Assembly: GCA_963675245.1 (NCBI GenBank)
Contig: OY775910.1
Location: forward strand, 800,001-864,000
DNA length: 64,000 nt
Origin: Acholeplasmataceae bacterium
Lineage (GTDB): Bacteria; Bacillota_I; Bacilli_A; Acholeplasmatales; Acholeplasmataceae
Reading direction: 5' to 3'
Both the position numbers and the translations under genes were made by a program. This document shows positions 4,875 through 59,472 of the stretch, one piece after another; positions within the stretch are counted from its first letter, which is position 1; every line of letters begins with the position of its first letter. The notes below the pieces were generated by a model that saw only the letters and a program-made list of their open reading frames with translations, searched no databases and had not been told where the DNA came from.

Positions 4875-5864
4875 ATGAAAGAGTTAAAGTTTGAAAAACC
4901 GACTGCGGTTGAAGAGCTATCGGTCGATGGTAATAAAGGTCGTTTTGTGATTAAACCACTCGAACGTGGATACGGCATTACGCTCGGTAACGCACTTCGT
5001 CGCGTCTTGCTTTCGTCGCTTCCCGGCGCAGCAATCGTCAATATCAAAATTGATGAAGTAGAGCATGAATTTGCTACAATTGATGGCGTCTATGAAGATG
5101 TCATGGGTATTGTATTAAACTTAAAGAAAGTCATTTTCCAAGTAGAATCAAATGATCCAAACTTTGAACAAAAACTTGAATTATATGCATCTGGTGCTGG
5201 CGAAGTAACAGCTGCAGACTTCATTCACGTTGATGGCGTTGATGTGGTTAACCCTGATCAAGTGATTGCTCATCTTGAAGAAAATGGATCATTATCAATG
5301 GTCGTAACTGTTAGACGTGGTGTAGGCTATGTCAGTGCAGAAAAGAACAAAGCTTTCAGTAAAAATGAAAAGAGTGTTATTGCAATTGATTCAATTTATA
5401 CACCAGTAACTCGTGTGAGCTATCATGTTGAAAAAACAAGAGGCGACACAGATGAACTAACATTAGAAATTGAAACTAATGGTGCGATTGAAGCGAAAGA
5501 TGCTTTAGCACTTGCAAGTAAGATGTTAATTGATTATTTTCAAGTCATCGTAGAGATTAGTGAATCAGCACAAGATGCAGATTTCATTTATGAAGCAGAA
5601 GATGAACCAGTTAACAAGAAGCTTGAAATGAAGATTGAACAACTCGATCTTTCAGTCAGACTATTCAATAGTTTGAAACGTTCTGGTATTTATACCGTTG
5701 CACAAATCATTCGTTTAACGGAAGAGGATGTAATGCGCCTTAGAAGTCTTGGACGTAAATCGTTTAAGGAATTAAAGGAAAAACTTGCAGAACATGGCCT
5801 CGAATTTGAAAATTCGTCAAGTAAAGATTCAAATGTATTTGCTGACGATATAGACAAGGAGTAA
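4875..5864 (+). CDS. rpoA: RNA polymerase alpha subunit
   Basis: PLERGYGITLGNALRRVLLSSLPG; alpha-CTD LDLSVR. Confidence 0.98.
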   Translation: MKELKFEKPTAVEELSVDGNKGRFVIKPLERGYGITLGNALRRVLLSSLPGAAIVNIKIDEVEHEFATIDGVYEDVMGIVLNLKKVIFQVESNDPNFEQKLELYASGAGEVTAADFIHVDGVDVVNPDQVIAHLEENGSLSMVVTVRRGVGYVSAEKNKAFSKNEKSVIAIDSIYTPVTRVSYHVEKTRGDTDELTLEIETNGAIEAKDALALASKMLIDYFQVIVEISESAQDADFIYEAEDEPVNKKLEMKIEQLDLSVRLFNSLKRSGIYTVAQIIRLTEEDVMRLRSLGRKSFKELKEKLAEHGLEFENSSSKDSNVFADDIDKE

Positions 5865-45633: not shown

Positions 45634-46794
45634 TTATTGTAGTTTAGAGGAATCAAAATCTTCCTGATGTGTTTCGAGATGATGAATGACTCTAATGAGT
45701 TTTTTTGAAAGATGAACCAGTGCGACACGATGATGTTTACCCTCTTGTTTCTTCTTGGTGTAGTAGTCGTAGAAGACGGGGTTATAGATCATAACCATCA
45801 TTGAGATATTGATGAGTGTTGCTCTTAGGTACTTGCTGCCACGTTTAACCAGTTTACCTGTTGAAGACATGGTGCCAGACTGTCTGATGGTTGAATCCAG
45901 ACCTGCATAGGATAACATTTCAGCGGGATTGGAGAAAAGTGAAATATCACCATATTCTGAAACGATGACAGCTGCTGAAATGATTCCGATACCTTTAATG
46001 GTTTGAATCTTAGTTGGATATCGATGCATTAAAGAAATGATCTGTTTCTCAGTTTCTTCGATATCTTGATTGAGTTTCTCAACATAAGAAATTGAAGTCT
46101 TAAGTTTGAATAGTTGATGATCTTGTGTCACACCAATGGTTGATTTTGCGAGTTCCTTCAGTTTAACAAACTTCGGATAATTGAATTTACCCATCGATCG
46201 TTTACGAAGCTTATCGAAGTGGTCATCAGTCATCCTTGCTATTTTATCCGGTGATGAAAAGCGCTTCAAGATGTATAAAGATGTATCACTATAGCCTTGT
46301 TCTTGCATAAAAGGTTTGAATTCAGGAAAGATGACATCTAAGACCTTGGTCATCATATTGTAGTGTTTCGTCCGAATTGAGATGAGTTTAAAACGTAACC
46401 TGGTCAGTGATTTTAAAGCACTTATATGATAAGATTGATGATGATAGGCTTTGTAGTCTACAGATCTCATATAAGTTGAAATCATTTGTGCATCTTTCTT
46501 ATCCGTCTTTGTTTTTCTCAGTGAATGGGCTTCTCCAAACTTCTTCACGAGAAAAGGATTAATCTCCATGAATGAATATCCATGGAGGATAAGAAATGAC
46601 TTAAGGTTTTCTCCATAATGACCTGTGGCCTCTAAGCCTATTATCATTTCTTGCTTGACTAAAGAGTTAAAGTATCCTAATAGTTCTTTAAACCCAGACT
46701 GACTGTTCTCAAATGAGAACTGATGGCTAACTGTTTCGGTGGCGATGAAACAGTCATGCTTGTACTTTGAAATATCGATGCCGATATAGATCAT
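45634..46794 (-). CDS. IS110 DEDD recombinase/transposase
   Basis: GIDISK, LEATGHY, KTDKKDA (RuvC-like DEDD); YAGL...QSG Tnp domain; GGAGGT RBS. Confidence 0.95.
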   Translation of the reverse strand: MIYIGIDISKYKHDCFIATETVSHQFSFENSQSGFKELLGYFNSLVKQEMIIGLEATGHYGENLKSFLILHGYSFMEINPFLVKKFGEAHSLRKTKTDKKDAQMISTYMRSVDYKAYHHQSYHISALKSLTRLRFKLISIRTKHYNMMTKVLDVIFPEFKPFMQEQGYSDTSLYILKRFSSPDKIARMTDDHFDKLRKRSMGKFNYPKFVKLKELAKSTIGVTQDHQLFKLKTSISYVEKLNQDIEETEKQIISLMHRYPTKIQTIKGIGIISAAVIVSEYGDISLFSNPAEMLSYAGLDSTIRQSGTMSSTGKLVKRGSKYLRATLINISMMVMIYNPVFYDYYTKKKQEGKHHRVALVHLSKKLIRVIHHLETHQEDFDSSKLQ

Positions 46795-49463: not shown

Positions 49464-49539
49464 GCCGAAATAGCTCAGGTGGTAGAGCAGCTGTCTCGTA
49501 ATCAGCAGGTCGTAGGTTCGAGTCCTATTTTCGGCACCA
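49464..49539 (+). tRNA. tRNA-Thr (anticodon CGT)
   Basis: 76-nt cloverleaf GCCGAAA/TTTCGGC, TAGCTCAG..GGTAGAGC, CT-CGT-AA loop, GGTTCGAGTCC, encoded CCA; TGCTATAAT promoter upstream. Confidence 0.95.
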
Positions 49540-49613
49540 TAAACTAAATTTATTATTTCTTAGAAGTTCATATACAATTGTAAAAAAAGTCAACCATAAA
49601 GGTTGATTTTTGT
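49526..49613 (+). repeat. att-like repeat copy 1 (tRNA 3' end, arm and terminator)
   Basis: TATTTTCGGCACCATAA + GAAGTTCATATA + AAAAGTCAACC/GGTTGATTTT. Confidence 0.85.
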
Positions 49614-49851
49614 CTTAGTAAAGCCAGTGTATATTAGAAAAATTAATCAGTACAAAAACTAAACATATGGAAGTTCAATTAGTGGGTTTAAAATGTGTCG
49701 TAGGATAGATGAAAGACATTATATTTCTACTATTGTATGATTTAATGAATATACATTTGTTTAGTTTTTTCATTGAATGTTTTTGAGACCTATGAATTTC
49801 TAGTCTTCCAGTGATATAATTAAAATAAATACGACTTATTGGGGGATCTGA

Positions 49852-51183
49852 ATGACAGAAATTGCTTTTTTAAATGTAATTGAAAAAATTAAAAACAAAG
49901 TAATAACATATGAGAATTTTTTTAATGACGAAGATTGGAACACGTATACAGAAATTTTTGCCAAAAAGTTAAAAGATTACGAGTATTATATATTTGATGG
50001 AAGATTCGAAGATGAGCTATACAGATATACATTAGCATTAAGTAATCAAAATCTAAATGAGATAATTTTAGAAACTTTAGTAAAAGATTTCTCAGTTATA
50101 CTGAAAGAAATATACACTGTAACAAATGTTATTGTTTTGCCTTTAAACCATCTGAATATAGAATATCTTGGTCTAGAAGTACTACTTGATGAAAATATTC
50201 GTGTGTTTTCTATGGTTGAATCACAAAAAGATATAAAAAATGATAAAACATTTATATCAAAATATATTGAACAAGAATTAAATGACAGACTGAATGCACA
50301 TCATATACTTGTTACTAAAGATCCATATTTTTTTAATTATCCTATCATGACTATAAAAATTCGACATGTTGATTATAGAGTTATACATGAATCTCCTAAA
50401 ATTGTTGAGTCAGTTTATGGATTAATGAGATTAATGGATATGTTTTCAAGTAGAGAGCCAACAGATTGCGGTTGGGGTGTAAAACATAGGGATAGAAAGC
50501 AAGAAGCTTACACTTATACAGTATATTACAACTTACATAAAACCAGTAATGAAGAAGGGCTTTATGGGTATTCATTTAGGTTTAAATTTTCACCTATACT
50601 AGATATTAACACAAAAGAATTAATTGAACATAAAGATAGATTCACTGTTTTATTGAATCAAGTAATCGATTTTACATTTCTTAGTGAAAATTCTACAGAT
50701 AAAAAAGAGTATCAAATTAAGAAAAAATGGGTAAATGCCATACTATTATTTAACACTGCTTATGAGTTTGCTTCAATAGGAAAATATGATTCAGCGCTAG
50801 TATTGTTTATAATAATCATAGAATCACTTATGTTTCAAATCGATGAATACAATACGAAAAAAGATTTAATTAACAAATTATGCAAGTATTTTTCAGGGAA
50901 TGAAGTTCAGAGTATTGACATAAAAAAAACAATATTAGATATTTATGAGTATAGAAGATTTTTTGTCCATCAAGGCGTAGGATTAGAAAGATTCACGACT
51001 TATAGAAGTCTTCATGATAGGGAAGGTATTGTAAAGGGTCAAAAGCCTTTTATTTATTCAATGGGATATCCTATGCCAGAAAAAGAATTTAATAATTATA
51101 TAAATTTCATTAAATTAATACAAATAATGCTAACAAATCCCATAGAAAAATTGCTAATAGACAATAAAGTTTCAGTTAAGTAG
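49852..51183 (+). CDS. Putative ApeA-like HEPN-domain defence protein
   Basis: C-terminal IESLM...IYEYRRFFVHQG (R-x4-H in Apea/HEPN-like context); AT-rich; first gene after the tRNA. Confidence 0.6.
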   Translation: MTEIAFLNVIEKIKNKVITYENFFNDEDWNTYTEIFAKKLKDYEYYIFDGRFEDELYRYTLALSNQNLNEIILETLVKDFSVILKEIYTVTNVIVLPLNHLNIEYLGLEVLLDENIRVFSMVESQKDIKNDKTFISKYIEQELNDRLNAHHILVTKDPYFFNYPIMTIKIRHVDYRVIHESPKIVESVYGLMRLMDMFSSREPTDCGWGVKHRDRKQEAYTYTVYYNLHKTSNEEGLYGYSFRFKFSPILDINTKELIEHKDRFTVLLNQVIDFTFLSENSTDKKEYQIKKKWVNAILLFNTAYEFASIGKYDSALVLFIIIIESLMFQIDEYNTKKDLINKLCKYFSGNEVQSIDIKKTILDIYEYRRFFVHQGVGLERFTTYRSLHDREGIVKGQKPFIYSMGYPMPEKEFNNYINFIKLIQIMLTNPIEKLLIDNKVSVK

Positions 51184-51431
51184 AGTAAATATTTAATCTA
51201 TTCGACACCTATTTTTTAAATTAGTTATTGTTATCTATAATCAAGTTAAATACACACATATAACATATATAAATTAGTGTAGTGCAATCAAAATTTAATG
51301 TAAAAAAGAGATAAAGTAAATGTAGAGCACAACATTTCATTAGAATACAACGAAGTAATGATATAATAAAATAAAACAACGATTATTTATACAGATTATA
51401 TATAAAACTGTATAAAATTAGGGAGGAAAAT

Positions 51432-52352
51432 ATGAGTATAAGTTTGAGTCAAATATATGACGAAATAAAAGTTGGATTGAAGCAAGACGATAAAGAAAGC
51501 AAAATACTTCGATCAAAGCAAGAAAAAATAAGAGAGATTCTTAGCAAGAAATCAGCGATTTATGAGAACGAAATGTTGGAACTTTCAGAATCAAACATGT
51601 TTATCCAAGGTAGTTATGGAATCGATACGGCAATTAAACATCCACTATATGATGTGGATGCAGATTTAGGATTGATAGTTGCTAATGAATATAACTTTGA
51701 TTTAAGAAGAAGAATATTCAATCAACTAAATAAAGAGTTAACATTACAAAAGGCTATCGTCAAGCTAAAAAAACCTTGCATTAATATTGATTTTAAAGAT
51801 GGTTATAATGTTGATGTAGCTATTTACGTAAAAAAAGGAAGCAATCTATATTTTAGAAATTCTATCAACGGAACAGAAACAGAAATTTTAGCTAAGCCAA
51901 TAGAATTAGTCACAGATTTTAAAGAAAGATTAGCAATAGATACACATAAACGAAAAATCATCAGACTTTTAAAACATTTTAATAATATAGCTAAAGATAA
52001 GTTATCAATAAGCGAAAAGAATTATATTCCTAGTATTTCGTTTACTATTTTTATTTTAAATCAAAATATTCAATCAGGGAACTTAGATGATATGATGTTA
52101 GAAAGTATACAAAAATTCAAAAAATTTGTTTTACTTAACACATATAATGGTCCTAAATATGATAGATTTTTAGTTGGCAATACATTCTACAAAGTTAATA
52201 ATATTAGCGAAGTTCACAAAGCAATTGACTATATCAAACTTAATTTAGAAAATAAACACTATTCTCAATTAACTTCAGATAGAATTATTGAAAACATAAA
52301 CAAAAAAAACGCTAAGGTAAATACATCATTAGTTGGTACTTTAGGTGATTAG
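51432..52352 (+). CDS. CBASS cyclic oligonucleotide synthase (CD-NTase)
   Basis: FIQGSY...DVDAD, KPCINI, YNVDVAIY, IRLLK motifs; operon with E2-E1, JAB and SAVED. Confidence 0.88.
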   Translation: MSISLSQIYDEIKVGLKQDDKESKILRSKQEKIREILSKKSAIYENEMLELSESNMFIQGSYGIDTAIKHPLYDVDADLGLIVANEYNFDLRRRIFNQLNKELTLQKAIVKLKKPCINIDFKDGYNVDVAIYVKKGSNLYFRNSINGTETEILAKPIELVTDFKERLAIDTHKRKIIRLLKHFNNIAKDKLSISEKNYIPSISFTIFILNQNIQSGNLDDMMLESIQKFKKFVLLNTYNGPKYDRFLVGNTFYKVNNISEVHKAIDYIKLNLENKHYSQLTSDRIIENINKKNAKVNTSLVGTLGD

Positions 52353-53532
52353 AGATATTTTAAAAGAACTAGGTATAGAATTCAGAGAAAATCAAGAACG
52401 TATAACATTTAACATATTAAGTTTAGATGTTTTTTATGACTTTAAAACTAAAAAATTATATATTGATAAGGAGTATTTTTCCAAAATTCCTCATATAAAT
52501 AGAGATGGTAGTATATGTTTATATGGGAATGTTGATTTAGTACTTAAAGAATTAGATGATCATGATGTAATAAAAAAAACATTGGATACATATTTACCGT
52601 GGTTAATTTCAATGTCTCCAGAATTAAAAGTTGCAGAATTTTTAGGTGAGATAAATTTTTTTACACAATATCATCTACATTATAATTATGTAAAAGAAAG
52701 TAAACCAGTTGGTGATTTTAGAATAGTTCACATATCTACTCCTGATGAGCTTTGGGAAACTATTGAAAATCTCAATAATGGAATGAAATATATACTCACT
52801 CCTGATGGATTTGAGAATATTATGGTTTACATACAAAAAAAAGGTGAAGATACATTGATACATTATGATTATCCTTATATAAATTCTTCAAAAAGAGTGA
52901 GTGGAAATAGTTTTGGATTTAAAAATGAATCTATAGGTTTAATTGGTTTAGGATCAGTAAATTCATATTGTCTAAAAATACTTTTATCTAAAGGATACAC
53001 TAAGTTTACATTAGTTGATGATGATATGGTAGAAATAGGTAATATGTTTAGATTTGCATTTCCTTATATTGGTGAAACAAAAATATCTGCAGCCGAAAAA
53101 TTCATCCAAAGTTTAGAAATTGTTGATAATGTTATTCAAAAACAAGAAACAAAAATAAAACTTGATTCTCCTAATTATTTCAATGACTCAGCTCTAATTT
53201 ATGTTTCGGTAGATAATTATGTATCCTGGATAAACATTAACAAATATTTGATTAACAACCAGTTATACAAGAAAAAAGTAGTATTTTTAGGTATAGATGT
53301 ATACGGAAACTATGGGAAATTCATTATGATTGATGTTGATAATCCTATAAAATTTAATCAATTATTTTATGATTTTTTACTATTTAATAGCTCTGAGGAT
53401 CAAAGACATGAAATGGTTGCAAATGGCTGTGGTAATTCTCTAGCAATTTATGGTGAAGGCGATATATTAGAATTGATTAATGAGGTATTAAAAAATGATA
53501 AAAAAAATATGGTTTTCAAAATCGATTTTTGA
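52345..53532 (+). CDS. cap2: CBASS Cap2 (E2-like plus ThiF/E1)
   Basis: PHINRDGSICLY E2-like; GLGSVNS, DDDMVEIGN.FR ThiF-like; NGC near C-terminus. Confidence 0.85.
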   Translation: MIRDILKELGIEFRENQERITFNILSLDVFYDFKTKKLYIDKEYFSKIPHINRDGSICLYGNVDLVLKELDDHDVIKKTLDTYLPWLISMSPELKVAEFLGEINFFTQYHLHYNYVKESKPVGDFRIVHISTPDELWETIENLNNGMKYILTPDGFENIMVYIQKKGEDTLIHYDYPYINSSKRVSGNSFGFKNESIGLIGLGSVNSYCLKILLSKGYTKFTLVDDDMVEIGNMFRFAFPYIGETKISAAEKFIQSLEIVDNVIQKQETKIKLDSPNYFNDSALIYVSVDNYVSWININKYLINNQLYKKKVVFLGIDVYGNYGKFIMIDVDNPIKFNQLFYDFLLFNSSEDQRHEMVANGCGNSLAIYGEGDILELINEVLKNDKKNMVFKIDF

Positions 53533-53908
53533 TTTTGATTTTAATAAACAAGTGTATGATTTACTAGCATTGTATTCAAAAGAAAATACAGAAATGGGTG
53601 GAATGCTCTTTTTAAATAATAAAGAAATTATAGGGATTTCATGTATTAGAGGAAAAAAATATAGTATTTCATTTTTAACTGACAATCCTTCTCTTTTTAT
53701 AGGACCACGTAATGGAATAATTGTTGGAACTTGGCATTCACATCCAGGTGATAATTCCCCATCAATTACTGATTTAGATCAATGGGAAAAATGGGGCAAA
53801 AAGTATATTCACATTATTATAAATACCTTATCGATAAAAGTATATAATTGGAAAGGTAAAGTATTGAAAGACATTGAAATTATAGGTGAAACAAATGAAA
53901 AAAAGTAA
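53495..53908 (+). CDS. cap3: CBASS Cap3 JAB peptidase
   Basis: EMGG, GTWHSHP...PSITD JAMM motif. Confidence 0.88.
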   Translation: MIKKIWFSKSIFDFDFNKQVYDLLALYSKENTEMGGMLFLNNKEIIGISCIRGKKYSISFLTDNPSLFIGPRNGIIVGTWHSHPGDNSPSITDLDQWEKWGKKYIHIIINTLSIKVYNWKGKVLKDIEIIGETNEKK

Positions 53909-54800
53909 CATTTTAATCGATTGGTTTAAAGTTTGTGAAATAGAATTGTTTCATGTTGCTCCAGGGTATTTTGCCATTGCACTTATATTAAATTTAAGCT
54001 TATATTTATATATGTTGACAATTAACTTATGGTTTCTCAGCTCTATCGTTATATACCCTATATTTTATATATTTTTATTAGCAATATATAATTATAGAAA
54101 TAGACTTATTATTAGTGCTGAAGGAACAAGAAAAGAAAAGCATACTTTAAGAAATAAAGCACATTTTCCGTTAGAGAAGATTATAGGGTCTAGAAAAATA
54201 AAATTTGTTTATGATGCTAAATTAAATATTGATGAAAATATAAAAAATATCATGGTTTTAAAAGAAAAAATTAAACCAAATGATGAAATTATCTATTTTG
54301 GTATAGTAAGTGTTCCATATAATGCATTATTGGGCTATATAATAGGTAGTGAACAAGAATACCATATCTATAACTACGATAGAACTCGTTCAATATGGGA
54401 AGATATTACAAGCTTCGATGAAAAACCGGATGTTGTAATGAAGAAGACCATTTATAAATCAAGTACAAAAGTAAATGCATTAATCTCTCTATCATTCAAT
54501 ATTAATCACAATAGCGTGTTTGATAATAAGAGAGATTTAGTGGAATTTAGTATTGAGGATTATAAACTTGATAAAAAAATTGATTATCCACATGTTATTG
54601 ATTTTGTTTTAAAAAATCTTGTTAATTATGAAGAAATTGATTTTTATATAGCTGCAAACAATGGCGTTGTGTTTTATCTTGGGACAAGATTAAGTGATTC
54701 TAATATTCCAGAAACTAGAGTTTTTGAATATAGTGGAAATGCAAGTAAGGGTTATGATTTTTGTATAAATTTGAAAACAAGAGATTCATTTGAACTATGA
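53895..54800 (+). CDS. CBASS 2TM-SAVED effector
   Basis: Two N-terminal TM helices; SAVED-like YFGIVSVP..LLGY, ISLS, FYIAA...FYLG...P...FEY. Confidence 0.8.
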   Translation: MKKSNILIDWFKVCEIELFHVAPGYFAIALILNLSLYLYMLTINLWFLSSIVIYPIFYIFLLAIYNYRNRLIISAEGTRKEKHTLRNKAHFPLEKIIGSRKIKFVYDAKLNIDENIKNIMVLKEKIKPNDEIIYFGIVSVPYNALLGYIIGSEQEYHIYNYDRTRSIWEDITSFDEKPDVVMKKTIYKSSTKVNALISLSFNINHNSVFDNKRDLVEFSIEDYKLDKKIDYPHVIDFVLKNLVNYEEIDFYIAANNGVVFYLGTRLSDSNIPETRVFEYSGNASKGYDFCINLKTRDSFEL

Positions 54801-54814
54801 TAGAGTGTGCAAAG

Positions 54815-54887
54815 AAAGTAAATTGGTTAACTTCATAACTAATTTTAAACACCATAATCTAGAACAACTTTATTTCGAAGTCCATAT
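54815..54887 (+). repeat. att-like repeat, decayed copy
   Basis: Aligns with 55965-56038 (offset 1150): AAAGTAA, AACTTCAT, CACCATAATCTA, TATTT.GAAGT.CATAT. Confidence 0.75.
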
Positions 54888-55091
54888 GTACATGTTAAAA
54901 ATTGATCTAAAAAAGTGTATTGTAGTATAGTAAAATCACTTTGTATTGTTGAAAATTTGTGATTGTATAAATATACTTATGTTTAGTTTGTGAAATAAAA
55001 AGATTTTAGATTTATTAGATTACATAGTTTGAATGGCTTGAAAAATAGAATATGAATCTTATCGGCAATTAATTACAAAGGAGTTAAATTA

Positions 55092-55901
55092 ATGGATGAA
55101 AGAAATGGAAAGTATTATCATGTTGCAATTGAAAGAAAAAATAAAAATAATAAATATGATACTGGTATAATTTCAGAATTAAATATTTTAGATTATGATG
55201 AAGTCAAAAATGATTATGTAATCCCGTATGTTAATAATAAATTGTTTTATATACAAGGGACACAAGTGAGTAAAGATGATATAGTATATTTTAAGGTGTC
55301 TGAAACCAACTTGAAAGCAGAAATTATTTCTAAACAAATAAATCAAAATAACCTTGATCAACGCATTTTCTTAACGTTCACCGATACAGAAGCAGTAATG
55401 ACAAGAAAATATGATATTACATCGAAAATTATAAAAGATTCATTAAAGGAATCTAATATAGAAAATGAAATAAATTTTGAACGTGAGTTAATGTCACACT
55501 TACACGATAGAATATTACAAGTTTCTTATAAAAAATTTTGCGATCTTCATTATGCTGATTCGGTCGAGAGTGCTTTTAAAGAAATTAATTCCAGATTAAA
55601 AAAAATATATAAGAGTAAAACTGGCCTTGAAAAAGATGGTAGAGATTTAATGGCTCATATATTTTCAGATACTAGTCCAATACTACAGTTATCGAGTGAT
55701 TTAGGTTCGATTAAGGGTAGAAATGTTCAAGAAGGTTATAGATTTATTTTTATGGGAGTTATAATTGCTATAAGAAATCCTAAAGCACACGAAAATCAAA
55801 ATATTTCGAAAGACACAGCATATGATAGATTAATATTGGCAAGTTTGTTGATGAAAAAGATTGATGAGGCTATTATCTATAGTAATATTATTGAGCATTG
55901 A
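55092..55901 (+). CDS. TIGR02391-like (HEPN-related) protein with distinct N-terminal domain
   Basis: YADSVESAFKEIN, DGRDLM..F, QEGY...G...IRNPKAH. Confidence 0.75.
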   Translation: MDERNGKYYHVAIERKNKNNKYDTGIISELNILDYDEVKNDYVIPYVNNKLFYIQGTQVSKDDIVYFKVSETNLKAEIISKQINQNNLDQRIFLTFTDTEAVMTRKYDITSKIIKDSLKESNIENEINFERELMSHLHDRILQVSYKKFCDLHYADSVESAFKEINSRLKKIYKSKTGLEKDGRDLMAHIFSDTSPILQLSSDLGSIKGRNVQEGYRFIFMGVIIAIRNPKAHENQNISKDTAYDRLILASLLMKKIDEAIIYSNIIEH

Positions 55902-55964
55902 AATTTGATTTAGATAATAAAGGTACTATTTTTACAACAATTCAATGAGTTCAACACTAATAAT

Positions 55965-56076
55965 AAAGTAAGTGGGTAAACTTCATGGCGTATTTTCGGC
56001 ACCATAATCTAAATTAATAGTATTTTGGAAGTTCATATAGATAGCAAAAAAGTCAACCAAAACGGTTGATTTTTGT
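55965..56076 (+). repeat. att-like repeat, conserved copy of tRNA-Thr 3' end
   Basis: 17-bp identity TATTTTCGGCACCATAA (55991-56007); GAAGTTCATATA at the same +37 offset; same terminator. Confidence 0.9.
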
Positions 56077-56453
56077 TTAAATTAAATTGCTTTTAAGACA
56101 TCAAGTATTACAATATAGATGCTAAGTATGTAGAGGATCAACTACTTAGTTCTCTTTATTATGTAACAGATTAAAATATTGAACGATATAAGTGAGATAT
56201 GAAGATATATAAACGATGGTATATATTTTATATTGATAATTTTTGTAATTAATAAAATTTTTAGGATATAATAGGGTTAATATTAGAAACTAATCGTATA
56301 AATGCATACACCAATTCAAGTATATACATTTATTTTTTATGGGGAGATTAAAGATGCTTTTGGTTAAAAAGGGAAACTTAAATGAATTCTCTTCCTTTTA
56401 TGCGAGATCATACAAAAACAATAAATATATGTTTGTAAAGAGAGGCGATTGAT

Positions 56454-56948
56454 TTGGATGAAATTAAGATTAATACTGATTCTAGTTTAGATGATTATGT
56501 TAAGTTTAATCTGTTTGCTTTAGAAAAATATCATAAGATATCACTGCAATACAATTTATTAATCATTACGTGTATTTTATCATTTGGTATAGCCTTTATC
56601 ATAGAAGAGAAAGTACTTTTCATGTTGTTAGGAACGTTTTCTCTTGCTTATAGAATTTTTCACCCCATTTTTGTTAAGAGATTGATTAAGAAACAAGTAA
56701 AAGATTCACCATCTATAATTAGCAGTAGTGAATTAACAATCAACGAAGATGAAATAATGGAAGTATCAGAAACCACAACAACAAAAGTTAAATGGAAGAA
56801 TATATTTTCATTTGATGAAGATAATGAATTGATATATATTTTTCACACAAAGATACAAGCATTCATAATACAAAAAAGAAATCTTAATGATCAGGCATTA
56901 TATCATTTGCAAAAATGGTCTAAAGCAGAGAAAAACGACAGTCAATAG
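56454..56948 (+). CDS. YcxB-like membrane protein
   Basis: Two TM helices, then KW..I...E.....YIF....AFII.KR; GAGG RBS with TTG start. Confidence 0.7.
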   Translation: MDEIKINTDSSLDDYVKFNLFALEKYHKISLQYNLLIITCILSFGIAFIIEEKVLFMLLGTFSLAYRIFHPIFVKRLIKKQVKDSPSIISSSELTINEDEIMEVSETTTTKVKWKNIFSFDEDNELIYIFHTKIQAFIIQKRNLNDQALYHLQKWSKAEKNDSQ

Positions 56949-56958
56949 AGGTAATTTA

Positions 56959-58248
56959 ATGATTAATAAACCAATTGTTGTGTTCGGTTCAGTTGCGCTT
57001 TCTAACATATATATTGAGGAAGAATTTAATGAGTTCATAAAAATTGAACAGATAACGAACACATTACAAAATGATTTAAGATTTGATTGGGATTTTGAAA
57101 TCAATAACACACCTTATATGGAAGCTTTTTCACGCTCTAAAAGTTCCTACCAAAGAATTACGTTTAGAGAAATTATTGCTGCTGTTAGAATAAATGAAGA
57201 CTACATCAAAGAATTGAATGGCAATAATGAAGAAATGAGCATACAAAAAAACGCTAAAGTTTATTTTTTTAGAAATGGTAATGTAGTATTGTTGACAAAA
57301 TATGAATTCGAAGAATCTTTTCAAACGATAAAATCATATGAAGATACTATTAATACTTTACATAAAAATATTCCAATGTATCTCAAAAAAATATTTTGGG
57401 AATGCGTAGATTTATACCGACAAACAATTCTGAAGTGCAATTATAGACATATATTTACGTTCAATGAGAAAATATATGAGAACAACATTGATGAACGCAC
57501 AATGAGATTTTCAATAGTCAATCATTTCTTCAATCATTCAATTGATCAAATCAATCAATTTTTTGAAAGTTGTGAAACAATCCACACGAATGAAGTAATT
57601 ACTAACGATAAGATGACTATTAGATTAGGATGGACACATTCTATTTTTATGTCAAAAGATAAAATATTTGAAGATGTTTATAATGTTAACCTCTATTCAA
57701 TGTACTTATTAATCATCTTAGCTAATTGGGCTGGATTGGACTGTCTACGCTTCAATTTACTTAATATAGAAAAATATTATAATTGTAATATATTTAATAA
57801 AAAAGTTCCCTTTAGAGAAATAACGAAAATCAAAGACGTATTGAACAGGTATGTTTTCAAGATAAAAGAAGTATTCAACACCCTAGATAGTTATCAATCA
57901 ACAAACCATCCAAAATCAAAGTATATTCTAAATATGTATCAAAAGGTGTTTGAGGAGAAAGAAGCAGCTCAAAGTGTTAATAATAAAATAGACTTATTGA
58001 TGCAAAAAATAAATTACTTACACGACAATCAAAAGGGTAGTTTAAACAATTCAATGAATATGATTTTATTCATATTGGCTACGATTTCGGTGATATCTAC
58101 TGTCGATTTAATATATAAGATAATTTCTGATTATCCTATCGTTTCTAGTATAATCATATTTGCTGTATCTATAGTCTCGTTATTTGTTATATTTATTTTA
58201 GTTTTTAAACATAGATTAGGTATTTTTGATTCTATTAAAAATAAGTAA
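56959..58248 (+). CDS. Hypothetical protein with C-terminal coiled coil and 2 TM helices (CorA-like tail)
   Basis: GAGG RBS; long soluble region, then NNSMNMILFILATISVI...IIIFAVSIVSLFVIFILVF. Confidence 0.6.
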   Translation: MINKPIVVFGSVALSNIYIEEEFNEFIKIEQITNTLQNDLRFDWDFEINNTPYMEAFSRSKSSYQRITFREIIAAVRINEDYIKELNGNNEEMSIQKNAKVYFFRNGNVVLLTKYEFEESFQTIKSYEDTINTLHKNIPMYLKKIFWECVDLYRQTILKCNYRHIFTFNEKIYENNIDERTMRFSIVNHFFNHSIDQINQFFESCETIHTNEVITNDKMTIRLGWTHSIFMSKDKIFEDVYNVNLYSMYLLIILANWAGLDCLRFNLLNIEKYYNCNIFNKKVPFREITKIKDVLNRYVFKIKEVFNTLDSYQSTNHPKSKYILNMYQKVFEEKEAAQSVNNKIDLLMQKINYLHDNQKGSLNNSMNMILFILATISVISTVDLIYKIISDYPIVSSIIIFAVSIVSLFVIFILVFKHRLGIFDSIKNK

Positions 58249-58410
58249 TTCGGAGAAATTCATGTAATTATTCTCTAATAGAAAAACAGTAAATGGGTTT
58301 CACAACATATTAGGATTTGATTTTTATATAAAAAATCATATGATATAATAAAAAAAACAAACGTTTCAAAAAGAGATATTAGGAACGTATTAAAGCAAGG
58401 AGGGGTTTAT

Positions 58411-59283
58411 ATGCCATCAGGTTCACATGGTGGAGGAGGCGGAAGCCACGGAGGTGGTGGTTTCGGGGGTTCTGGATTTAGGGGATCACACACACCAAGA
58501 CAATCATATGTTCATCGACATAATGTTTTTCATCCACCACACAGATATTATTTTTTCGGAAGAGTGTATTCTGTCGGTTCTTATAGATACTATACAATGT
58601 CAAAAATAAGCACGTGGATATTCTTTGCTTTTGTAGCGGTGCTTGTATGTGGTGTTTTCTTTTTTCAACAACAATCCGCGATTAACCAAGTTAAATCAGA
58701 TCAGGCTTATTATTTCAACATGATTGAAAATGCGGATTCAGATCAATATATGACTGCTGTTGTAAGAAATCAATATGAAGGTGATGGTGGGAAGTATTAT
58801 ATCACCTATAATTTAGTAGTTAATAACAACTATCTTTGGGCTGAAGATGGATATACATATTCTATATACACCATGGAAGAAGCATCCGCTATATTTCAAG
58901 CAGGTGAAATCGACATTGTTGTTGATAGACTTCCTTTAACTATCAACACCGATTCAATCAATGCTGATTATATGGATTATAGTCTATCAGATGATGGTTA
59001 TTATAGTCATGCTGTACTCATGAGAACTATTATCATCATTGCAGGTAGTGTTGCTGTGATAGCGGTACTTGGCTTTGCATCATACTATTTCAAAATGATG
59101 TTCTCATATCAATTAACCGGAGAAGAAAAAACAAATTTATTCAGTGAAAAGAAGGATGAAAATCCAAATGAAAAAACAGAATATTGTTTGTATTGTGGAT
59201 CAGTAATGTCTAAAGATGATGATAAGTGTCCGAAATGTGGATCAGCAAGATCATATACATCAGATGATTATGTGGATGTATAA
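58411..59283 (+). CDS. Hypothetical membrane protein with Gly-rich N-terminus and C-terminal zinc ribbon
   Basis: AGGAGG RBS; GSHGGGG repeats; 2 TM; CLYC...CPKC. Confidence 0.75.
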   Translation: MPSGSHGGGGGSHGGGGFGGSGFRGSHTPRQSYVHRHNVFHPPHRYYFFGRVYSVGSYRYYTMSKISTWIFFAFVAVLVCGVFFFQQQSAINQVKSDQAYYFNMIENADSDQYMTAVVRNQYEGDGGKYYITYNLVVNNNYLWAEDGYTYSIYTMEEASAIFQAGEIDIVVDRLPLTINTDSINADYMDYSLSDDGYYSHAVLMRTIIIIAGSVAVIAVLGFASYYFKMMFSYQLTGEEKTNLFSEKKDENPNEKTEYCLYCGSVMSKDDDKCPKCGSARSYTSDDYVDV

Positions 59284-59472
59284 GCATACAGACGAAAAGC
59301 GATGTTATAAATCGCTTTTTCTTTTAAATAGAAGTGATGCTTATGTAGTGTAGATGAAGGGAAATTTATGTGATAAAATCATAAATTAATAGATTTTCTT
59401 TGAAAATCATATTTAAATTATGCAAACAGTATTGTATAATAAACTAAAATAACGTTTAATTGGGGAGATAAA

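Follow-up and report, generated by a model that had tools for sequence, protein, structure and literature searches.

A tRNA-Thr(CGT)-anchored island of repeat-bounded units with defence genes in an Acholeplasmataceae genome, possibly built by serial site-specific integration

Repeats and genes at the tRNA-Thr(CGT) locus

The window described here is a stretch of 64,000 nucleotides from Acholeplasmataceae bacterium (assembly GCA_963675245.1, contig OY775910.1, positions 800,001 to 864,000 of the forward strand). ARAGORN finds a single tRNA gene in these 64 kb, a tRNA-Thr(CGT), and the 3' end of that gene anchors an island that begins at 49.5 kb and reaches 58.3 kb or beyond. A 17-bp core, TATTTTCGGCACCATAA, occurs exactly at 49526-49542, overlapping the tRNA, and again at 55991-56007, with mismatching bases on either side of the repeat. 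The elements that make up the repeats are as follows, in window coordinates.

49464..49539 (+): tRNA-Thr(CGT), the anchor, on the attB side (ARAGORN; Rfam tRNA, 68.8 bits)
49526..49542 (+): core copy 1 (attL), made up of the tRNA's final 14 nt and the 3 that follow
49543..49625 (+): downstream (D) arm, with a bidirectional terminator hairpin at 49590-49606 and inverted ATGAAYTTCTAR at 49560-49571 (-)
49626..49851 (+): leader of the first unit, with forward motif ATGAATTTCTAG at 49792-49803 (+)
54812..54887 (+): decayed junction with upstream arm, altered core and start of the D arm
55962..56085 (+): intact junction with upstream arm at 55965-55985, core copy 2 at 55991-56007 and D-arm terminator at 56048-56074
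58285..58315 (+): borderline candidate for a terminal junction in decay
59376..59412 (+): D-arm-like piece, 30 of 36 positions matching, after a terminator at 59294-59320

Both core copies are followed by a D arm of about 80 nt that includes the terminator, with 58 nt at 81% identity and 40 nt at 85%. Searched against the whole 1.63-Mb genome, the D arm finds its counterpart at 83% identity over 86-88 nt (E 2.3e-19), and the exact repeat with its shared arm and terminator, the starting observation of a first-pass annotation of this DNA, is confirmed. Core copy 2 is preceded by a second conserved element, an upstream arm of 21 nt, AAAGTAAGTGGGTAAACTTCA, which is absent from the tRNA. With up to 3 mismatches allowed, the upstream-arm pattern is matched twice in the window where 0.02 matches would be expected; none of 100 shuffled sequences reached 2. 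By eye the arm resembled a diverged tRNA 3' half; this idea was dropped after alignment of five arms gave z of 0.5-1.5 (p 0.11-0.38).

The second match to the arm pattern belongs to the decayed junction at 54812-54887, a copy that the first-pass annotation had also proposed, near 54815-54887, and that is well supported. Here the upstream arm has 3 mismatches and the core is altered at 4 of 14 positions. The junction aligns over 64 nt at 73% identity with z = 15 (300 shuffles), reaches E 2.5e-6 genome-wide (74% over 77 nt), and ranks third in the 1.63-Mb genome with a profile that was built excluding it. Two weaker remnants had been suggested as well. The one at about 51182-51222 is not supported, with z from -0.6 to 0.7 against five reference junctions and no profile match. 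The other, near 58288, is borderline: 58285-58315 scores z 3.5 (p about 0.003) against the terminal copy in G003, a sister species. Of three control spacers, however, one reached z 3.8, and the genome scan with the junction profile has no match at 58285-58315. The high-scoring control spacer contains the D-arm-like piece at 59376-59412, so the array may extend to about 60.0 kb. The expectation that repeats fall between functional units holds around the single-gene unit described below and is not supported (z < 1) at the boundary once drawn between the 443-aa open reading frame (ORF) and the adjoining operon, so that these two may form one unit. The island is then read as three units, A to C.

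Unit A, 49543 to about 54860: a 443-aa ORF and a complete type II CBASS (cyclic oligonucleotide-based antiphage signaling system) operon
49852..51183 (+): 443-aa ORF of no recognised family; no Pfam, PADLOC or NCBIfam match
51432..52352 (+): CBASS CD-NTase (cyclase); PADLOC Cyclase, E 6.1e-22; PF21654
52345..53532 (+): CBASS Cap2-like E1/E2 protein; PADLOC E1-E2, E 1.8e-19; ThiF
53495..53908 (+): CBASS Cap3-like JAB peptidase; PADLOC JAB, E 1.5e-7; Prok-JAB
53886..54800 (+): CBASS effector with SAVED sensor domain; PF18145, E 1.4e-17; NF033611; PADLOC SAVED_TM/2TM
Unit B, about 54861-56007, 1.15 kb: a single HEPN-type gene
55092..55901 (+): 269-aa Hypoth_Ymh/TIGR02391 protein (HEPN-type); PF09509, E 3.1e-26; TIGR02391
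Unit C, 56008 to about 58315: two genes
56454..56948 (+): 164-aa YcxB-like protein; PF14317, E 9.2e-10
56887..58248 (+): 453-aa ORF of no recognised family; unnamed Atlas clusters only, no Pfam, PADLOC or NCBIfam match
Flank or additional unit
58411..59283 (+): 290-aa zinc-ribbon protein

The four overlapping or adjacent genes at 51432-54800 make up a type II CBASS by both PADLOC and Pfam. The 269-aa protein of unit B also matches the PADLOC models PD-Lambda-3_B (E 1.2e-12) and Aga_HEPN. These assignments identify the CBASS operon as a defence system and make such a role plausible for unit B. The HEPN label given earlier to the 443-aa ORF is a lead only: Atlas scores of 0.88-0.89 to HEPN_Apea clusters and an RRFFVH motif suggest a possible ApeA-like HEPN domain, while the domain databases listed above return nothing. 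Homologs of the 290-aa zinc-ribbon protein follow the arrays of two sister species, G006 and G002, with two copies in G002.

Base composition sets the island apart, as had been noted: GC is 0.23-0.30 over 49500-58499, compared to 0.33-0.43 upstream and 0.339 genome-wide, and climbs again at about 60.0 kb. Unit leaders are about 0.2-0.5 kb (230-450 nt), and the terminator sits in the D arm. Claims about signals within the units fared less well. The TGnTATAAT promoters attributed to several units are not supported, as promoter-like sites number 80 against 85.6 expected from shuffles and are not enriched. The inverted hexamers AACTTC and GAAGTT are present around the core, but the junction does not fold as single-stranded DNA better than shuffled sequence (four strands, z -0.91 to +0.73 against 200 shuffles each), and a search of the leaders for RNA families matched the tRNA itself and nothing more. 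Separately, the motif ATGAAYTTCTAR has 6 exact matches in the 1.63-Mb genome, two of them within the first leader. A copy with 1 mismatch lies at 56025-56036 (-), in addition to the two listed above, and similar motifs occur in unit leaders of Mariniplasma and of G001 and G002. A regulator or a recombination protein may bind there.

The island was also said to have no integrase, and this is borne out. No recombinase ORF was found between 47 and 62 kb, either by Pfam search of ORFs or by tblastn with the six recombinases of this genome. Over 45.6-62 kb, the only recombination-type Pfam match on any ORF is an IS110 DEDD transposase; the genes lpd and DAGK also lie upstream. The transposase gene (DEDD_Tnp_IS110 plus Transposase_20, 45634-46794, minus strand) is 2.7 kb upstream of the tRNA. 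It was considered as the recombinase of the array and rejected, as it is missing beside the syntenic tRNA in seven annotated related loci. Relaxase, coupling-protein and type IV secretion system domains are absent from the window array and from seven related arrays, and tblastn with 13 proteins of Plasmavirus L2 gives no match at genome 849-860 kb.

The same tRNA gene in related genomes

The left flank, lpd-DAGK-tRNA-Thr(CGT), keeps its synteny across genera, which allows the DNA beyond the tRNA to be compared. Within the genus the comparison covers seven assembled loci, this genome counted. In the three other genus genomes, the G005 assembly breaks 225 bp past the tRNA, in G009 a contig starts at DAGK, and neither G004 nor G009 gives a tRNA match. 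Extra core copies with arms are found in five of the six sister species (G001, G002, G003, G006 and G007) and not in G008. In G007 the order is tRNA core plus D arm, then arm-core-D arm, then a final arm-core followed by a different flank that lacks a D arm. G006 has two internal junctions and G003 one decayed junction, while G001 and G002 each have one junction with a second family of arms. We considered G008 as an example of an empty site, on the basis of a likeness of about 35 nt seen by eye to the flank of the last G007 junction; blastn at E 1e-3 does not recover it, and the idea was abandoned.

A strict form of the arm pattern occurs in 5 of 172 genomes of the family, and a reversed control pattern in none. 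The tRNA-Thr(CGT) is matched in 49 family genomes; 20 loci from other genera were taken from among them, picked by length of contig, and 10 of these have at least one further core copy. The richest example is a Mariniplasma-like metagenome contig, Ga0222658_1000013, in which the tRNA is followed by at least eight junctions across 25 kb, seven of them intact, bounding units of 1.2-10 kb. Its upstream arm is identical over 27 nt in five junctions with unrelated cargo, and differs at one position in a sixth. The arm is conserved across two genera.

Identical gene content in relatives, named in advance as an outcome that would speak against modular gain and loss, was not seen; the cargo at the same tRNA is entirely different. 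Units of relatives encode Pycsar, an OLD/AriA-like ATPase, PDC-M11 with Shedu, a GmrSD/NsnA-like protein, a KAP NTPase, a Mokosh-like helicase, RelB-Fic and SoFic. Outside defence, they encode permeases, a radical-SAM/PqqD/ABC cluster, an ankyrin protein and surface proteins of large size. A few modules recur in differing neighbourhoods: an ATPase of about 800 aa with a partner of about 100 aa, in three species; PycC-PycTM, in two; and a DUF2130 gene, taken up below.

Conservation extends from the junction into the leader. The tRNA, D arm and first leader of the window are 84% identical over 392 bp to those of G006, where a different gene comes next. Between species generally, junction plus leader is 80-88% identical over 370-860 bp while the genes behind differ, so that each unit in effect has a conserved head made up of these two parts. 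The same observation invites another explanation, that cargo is now deleted, inserted and swapped by RecA-mediated homologous recombination through junction modules of 100-500 bp after DNA uptake, with site-specific integration doing no more than the seeding. Two further cases fit it: homology between a unit of G108 and one of the metagenome contig runs through junction and leader and stops after about 75 codons of a helix-turn-helix gene, and a DUF2130 gene shared by G003 (L041 8466-9752, reverse-complement coordinates) and G001 (L044 4316-5602) is 88.6% identical where the flanking DAGK is 73.7%, which suggests recent transfer of the gene between these arrays. Homologous recombination leaves unexplained, however, that the repeat starts at the tRNA core and that the terminal G007 junction is without a D arm, and the good copies in the window share only about 100 nt at 81-85%, a poor substrate for RecA. 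As an account of the array we regard it as improbable; exchange through the heads may well act on top of either site-specific integration or loss by deletion.

Two side observations concern these junctions. Helix-turn-helix membrane proteins encoded at L117 8616-9881 and L107 11308-12513 (-) are near-identical over their first 75 or so residues and unrelated thereafter; the upstream junction and leader are also shared, and the mosaic break lies within the gene. A sequence end formed by ATGAAATGACTCC and a TTGGAG hairpin occurs 5-10 nt past the core at five places in five species, after the tRNA core in G003 (L041), G099 (L110), G097 (L119) and G114 (L121) and at an internal junction of G006 (L039 4854-4900). 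In G003 an IS3-type rve gene comes after it, and it may represent an insertion sequence that targets the attachment site.

Public sequencing runs (four, from one study) yield assembled contigs that span the window locus without difference, though contigs are unable to show rare forms. A second sample has the same locus sequence as short, low-depth contigs. A single alternative joint among those listed, from one contig with a 22-nt side, is not credible, and these contigs reveal neither an excision product nor polymorphism between strains.

Recombinases and a Plasmavirus L2-like provirus

The six recombinases of this genome were used in tblastn searches of 28 loci (7 genus loci, 20 family loci and the metagenome contig). 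A match was found only in G117, so no integrase remnants were detected in the arrays: 27 of the 28 loci, holding some 30 units, contain no integrase fragment. In G117, a 15.7-kb element lies between the tRNA-Thr(CGT) and a true copy of the tRNA 3' half. It has an Xre regulator beside attL, a 312-aa tyrosine integrase, and homologs of L2 ORF1, ORF3 and the envelope protein ORF13, and by this gene content is an L2-like provirus. A first unit of 1.1 kb in G108 was examined for likeness to the left end of this provirus and set aside, as the tRNA half alone matched.

The best phage match to the integrases of the G117 provirus and of an element at tRNA-Lys in the present genome, described below, is the L2 integrase, at 32-35% identity over 93-98% of the length (E about 1e-41); for the tRNA-Lys integrase the identity is 35%, over 98% of the length. 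Plasmavirus L2 has been reported to integrate at tRNA genes (PMC7466169). Homologs of the L2-type integrase occur in 24 of 172 family genomes (E <= 1e-25), and in 5 of the 11 homolog loci scanned for tRNAs the integrase adjoins tRNA-Arg(tct), Val(gac), Lys(ctt) or Cys. Judged from these homologies and positions, small tRNA-targeting integrases are common in this lineage, and one member uses tRNA-Thr(CGT). The presence of such a family at tRNAs across Acholeplasmataceae, together with a provirus at this very tRNA, makes a recombinase acting in trans plausible.

Other tRNA-anchored arrays in the genome

A script searched the 1.63-Mb genome for the final 16 nt of each of its 42 tRNAs. Repeated tRNA ends lie behind five of them.

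tRNA-Lys(ctt): 5 extra copies, genome 121853-151810 (L098, L099)
tRNA-Phe(gaa): 5 extra copies, genome 772658-778420 (L100), units of 0.7-1.5 kb
tRNA-Arg(tct): 2 extra copies, genome 311100-312724 (L101), two repeat-bounded units of 0.7-0.9 kb
tRNA-Gln(ttg): 1 extra copy, genome 990416-995299 (L102)
tRNA-Thr(cgt): 1 exact extra copy, the array of the window

At Lys, Phe and Arg the repeat comprises the whole tRNA 3' half from the anticodon loop plus a terminator arm. The Phe array encodes small proteins (a lipoprotein, a WapI-like protein) and has no recombinase. The 4.8-kb element at the Gln site encodes an L2-type integrase of 293 aa as well as a Phage_rep_org_N protein. The tRNA-Lys array, with its five 3'-half copies, begins with a 17.3-kb element that encodes an L2-type integrase, L2 ORF1, a rolling-circle Rep (Rep_trans), GmrSD and a D12 methyltransferase; tblastn matches to L2 proteins fall at genome 128-131 kb, within it. 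Four integrase-less units of 2.3-4.6 kb come next, three of which open with the arm and the 79-aa Xre gene of the integrase-bearing element. The arrangement is that of a textbook accretion array whose helper is resident, and so makes trans action credible for the tRNA-Thr array as well.

Much of this evidence bears on the main rival to such a history, in which the units are deletion remnants, strictly cis-mobilizable elements (CIMEs), of full integrase-bearing proviruses or islands, and small cassettes never moved. An L2-like provirus does occupy tRNA-Thr(CGT), in G117; the tRNA-Lys units without integrase carry the left arm and Xre gene of the element that has one; several junctions of the window are decayed; and decay to a CIME is described as the standard route in a review of streptococcal elements (PMC5704250). 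We nevertheless consider this origin unlikely. No integrase fragment was detected in the 27 loci noted above, nor any L2 match in the array of the window. Units down to 1.2 kb retain both ends, and an arm that is identical in five junctions and conserved across two genera is hard to obtain through independent random deletions.

The five arrays also bear on the notion of a dedicated, integron-like host system, in which a chromosomal Xer-like enzyme captures and reshuffles cassettes at tRNA ends. Two Xer-like recombinases are conserved in 10 of 10 genus genomes, and three of the five arrays lack an element-borne integrase, L2-type integrases being held by the Lys and Gln sites. These two integrases belong to one family, 35% identical to each other. 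Cores and arms of the five arrays are unrelated to one another, however, so a single site-specific enzyme should not serve all; no recombinase gene is linked to the array, and no attC-like fold is seen. G008 has the conserved recombinases and still shows no repeat at tRNA-Thr. A host enzyme of this kind seems very improbable. As a side observation, adjacent tyrosine recombinases of 323 and 318 aa are encoded at genome 1130589-1134732 (L103), between a PRiA4_ORF3-like gene and an AAA_21 ATPase gene, and G008 carries a pair that resembles them.

A model of serial integration

The explanation we consider most likely, with moderate confidence, is that the locus is an additive, accretion-type island built by serial crossover in the 14-17-bp core, its units being served by integrases in trans. 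Under this model, circular units that bear an attachment site would integrate one after another by tyrosine-recombinase crossover inside the core TATTTTCGGCACCA. The attachment site would consist of the upstream arm of about 21 nt, the tRNA core, the downstream arm with its terminator, and a leader of 0.2-0.5 kb. Every integration would keep the tRNA intact, supply a new terminator and displace older units outward, and the recombinase would come from resident or infecting elements that encode small integrases of the Plasmavirus L2 type. The repeats, the lack of any recombinase, the conserved junctions around differing cargo and the L2-like provirus at the same tRNA in another genus are observed, while we infer that crossover falls within the core, that the recombinase acts in trans and that the units move as circles. 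With the D arm taken as part of each incoming unit, the model accounts for its absence from the final junction of G007, which host flank would follow. The first-pass annotation had proposed much the same, serial integration of small cassettes by a recombinase acting in trans, and that part stands as plausible: the units are bounded by attachment sites, lack recombinases and differ in cargo.

In this genome the array is largely fossil, with intact cores only at the tRNA and at 55991-56007. With two intact cores, it is the 6.45-kb composite between them, rather than the 1.15-kb unit, that could still excise; excision of the latter on its own today, once suggested as a PCR target, is unlikely with so altered a core on one side.

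Several observations weigh against serial integration in trans. Two or three of the window junctions are decayed, which fits old remnants equally well. None of the six tyrosine recombinases of this genome is in the window, the closest being about 130 kb away, and neither a serine recombinase nor a cognate integrase for the tRNA-Thr site was found in the genome. A true tRNA half, without the conserved upstream arm, closes the G117 provirus, so its integrase is only a candidate for acting at the cassette sites. No homolog of this integrase at more than 45% identity exists in the other genomes that bear the upstream arm, and G007 has two good junctions yet no homolog at E <= 1e-25. A free attP form had 0 matches in viral contigs, and genome and metagenome collections gave array copies only, a lone Capnocytophaga contig in the genome-collection scan being probably a chance match.

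A more specific form of the model is doubtful: the units would be non-autonomous mobile cassettes, satellites of plasmavirus-like elements, each made up of a conserved attachment module (upstream arm, core, and head with terminator and leader) and one to five cargo genes, with L2-type elements as helpers. Such cassettes would be excised by their helpers, and pleomorphic enveloped virions might ferry them from cell to cell. If so, wall-less bacteria would have a tRNA-anchored, integron-like means of exchanging defence genes.

If the units do move, Acholeplasmataceae, bacteria whose genomes are small and in which few mobile elements are known, trade individual defence systems (CBASS, Pycsar, Shedu, Fic and others) by tiny cassettes that lack a recombinase, and the exchange would be tied to plasmaviruses, a barely studied family of viruses. 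If the units are fossil, the locus is an ordinary tRNA defence hotspot. With the junction defined (an arm of about 21 nt, a core of 14-17 bp and a terminator head) and a candidate integrase named, the model is directly testable in vitro.

Comparison with known systems

Integrons consist of the tyrosine recombinase IntI, encoded beside the array on its attI side, and of mostly promoterless cassettes that share a promoter and have attC sites, imperfect palindromes able to form single-stranded hairpins. The likeness of the present array to them, drawn in the first-pass annotation, is one of outcome only: an ordered row of small units, each with one gene or a few, that is gathered at a single site and varies in content among relatives. 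Membership among integrons does not hold, as the array has no adjacent intI and no folded attC-like sites. Its attachment sites are instead derived from a tRNA end and of double-strand type, and its units carry a long leader and terminator of their own.

Plasmavirus L2 of Acholeplasma laidlawii (NC_001447) is related through its integrase, as set out above. Its annotated attP (5029-5053) has no obvious likeness to the junctions described here when compared by eye.

CIMEs and accretion at the sites of streptococcal ICEs (elements that are integrative and conjugative) and IMEs (integrative and mobilizable ones) are closer. As outlined in the review cited above (PMC5704250), tandem units lie at the 3' end of a gene, whether for a tRNA or not, and are bounded by attL and attR, as here; CIMEs lack integration and transfer genes, and the integrase of a related element can act on them. 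The window units likewise have attachment-site copies as boundaries (the 17-bp core twice plus the decayed copy) and contain no integration or transfer genes. Unlike CIMEs, they show no conjugation genes or remnants, and so no sign of descent from ICEs or IMEs. They also belong to arrays with units as small as 1.2 kb and with an upstream arm of non-tRNA origin common to two genera, and the candidate helpers are plasmavirus-like proviruses rather than ICEs.

Additive flexible islands at tRNAs in Alteromonas, in the account given of them (PMC4898812), have content unrelated to phylogeny, and here too the same tRNA is followed by different cassette sets with partial tRNA direct repeats. The Alteromonas pattern is seen among strains, whereas the present one is between species only, with the anatomy of the junction and a candidate integrase family defined.

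Tycheposon islands of Prochlorococcus (10.1101/2020.12.28.424599), as far as that report describes them, share several features: tyrosine recombinases that target tRNAs, successive integrations that push older elements inward, scattered partial tRNAs, degenerate remnants and defence cargo. Tycheposons carry an integrase and often replication genes, while 27 of the 28 loci here have no integrase and the candidate family is that of Plasmavirus L2.

A literature search on integrase-less defence hotspots listed nothing closer, and searches on Acholeplasma or other Mollicutes gave general reviews only, whose consulted passages make no mention of such arrays. The array is of an already known kind, that of CIMEs, additive tRNA islands and tycheposon islands, beside which it would stand, if the model is right, as a well-defined added case. 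Its novelty lies in the lineage, in the non-tRNA arm and the head as defined here, in a density of five arrays per 1.6-Mb genome, and in the tie to integrases of the L2 type.

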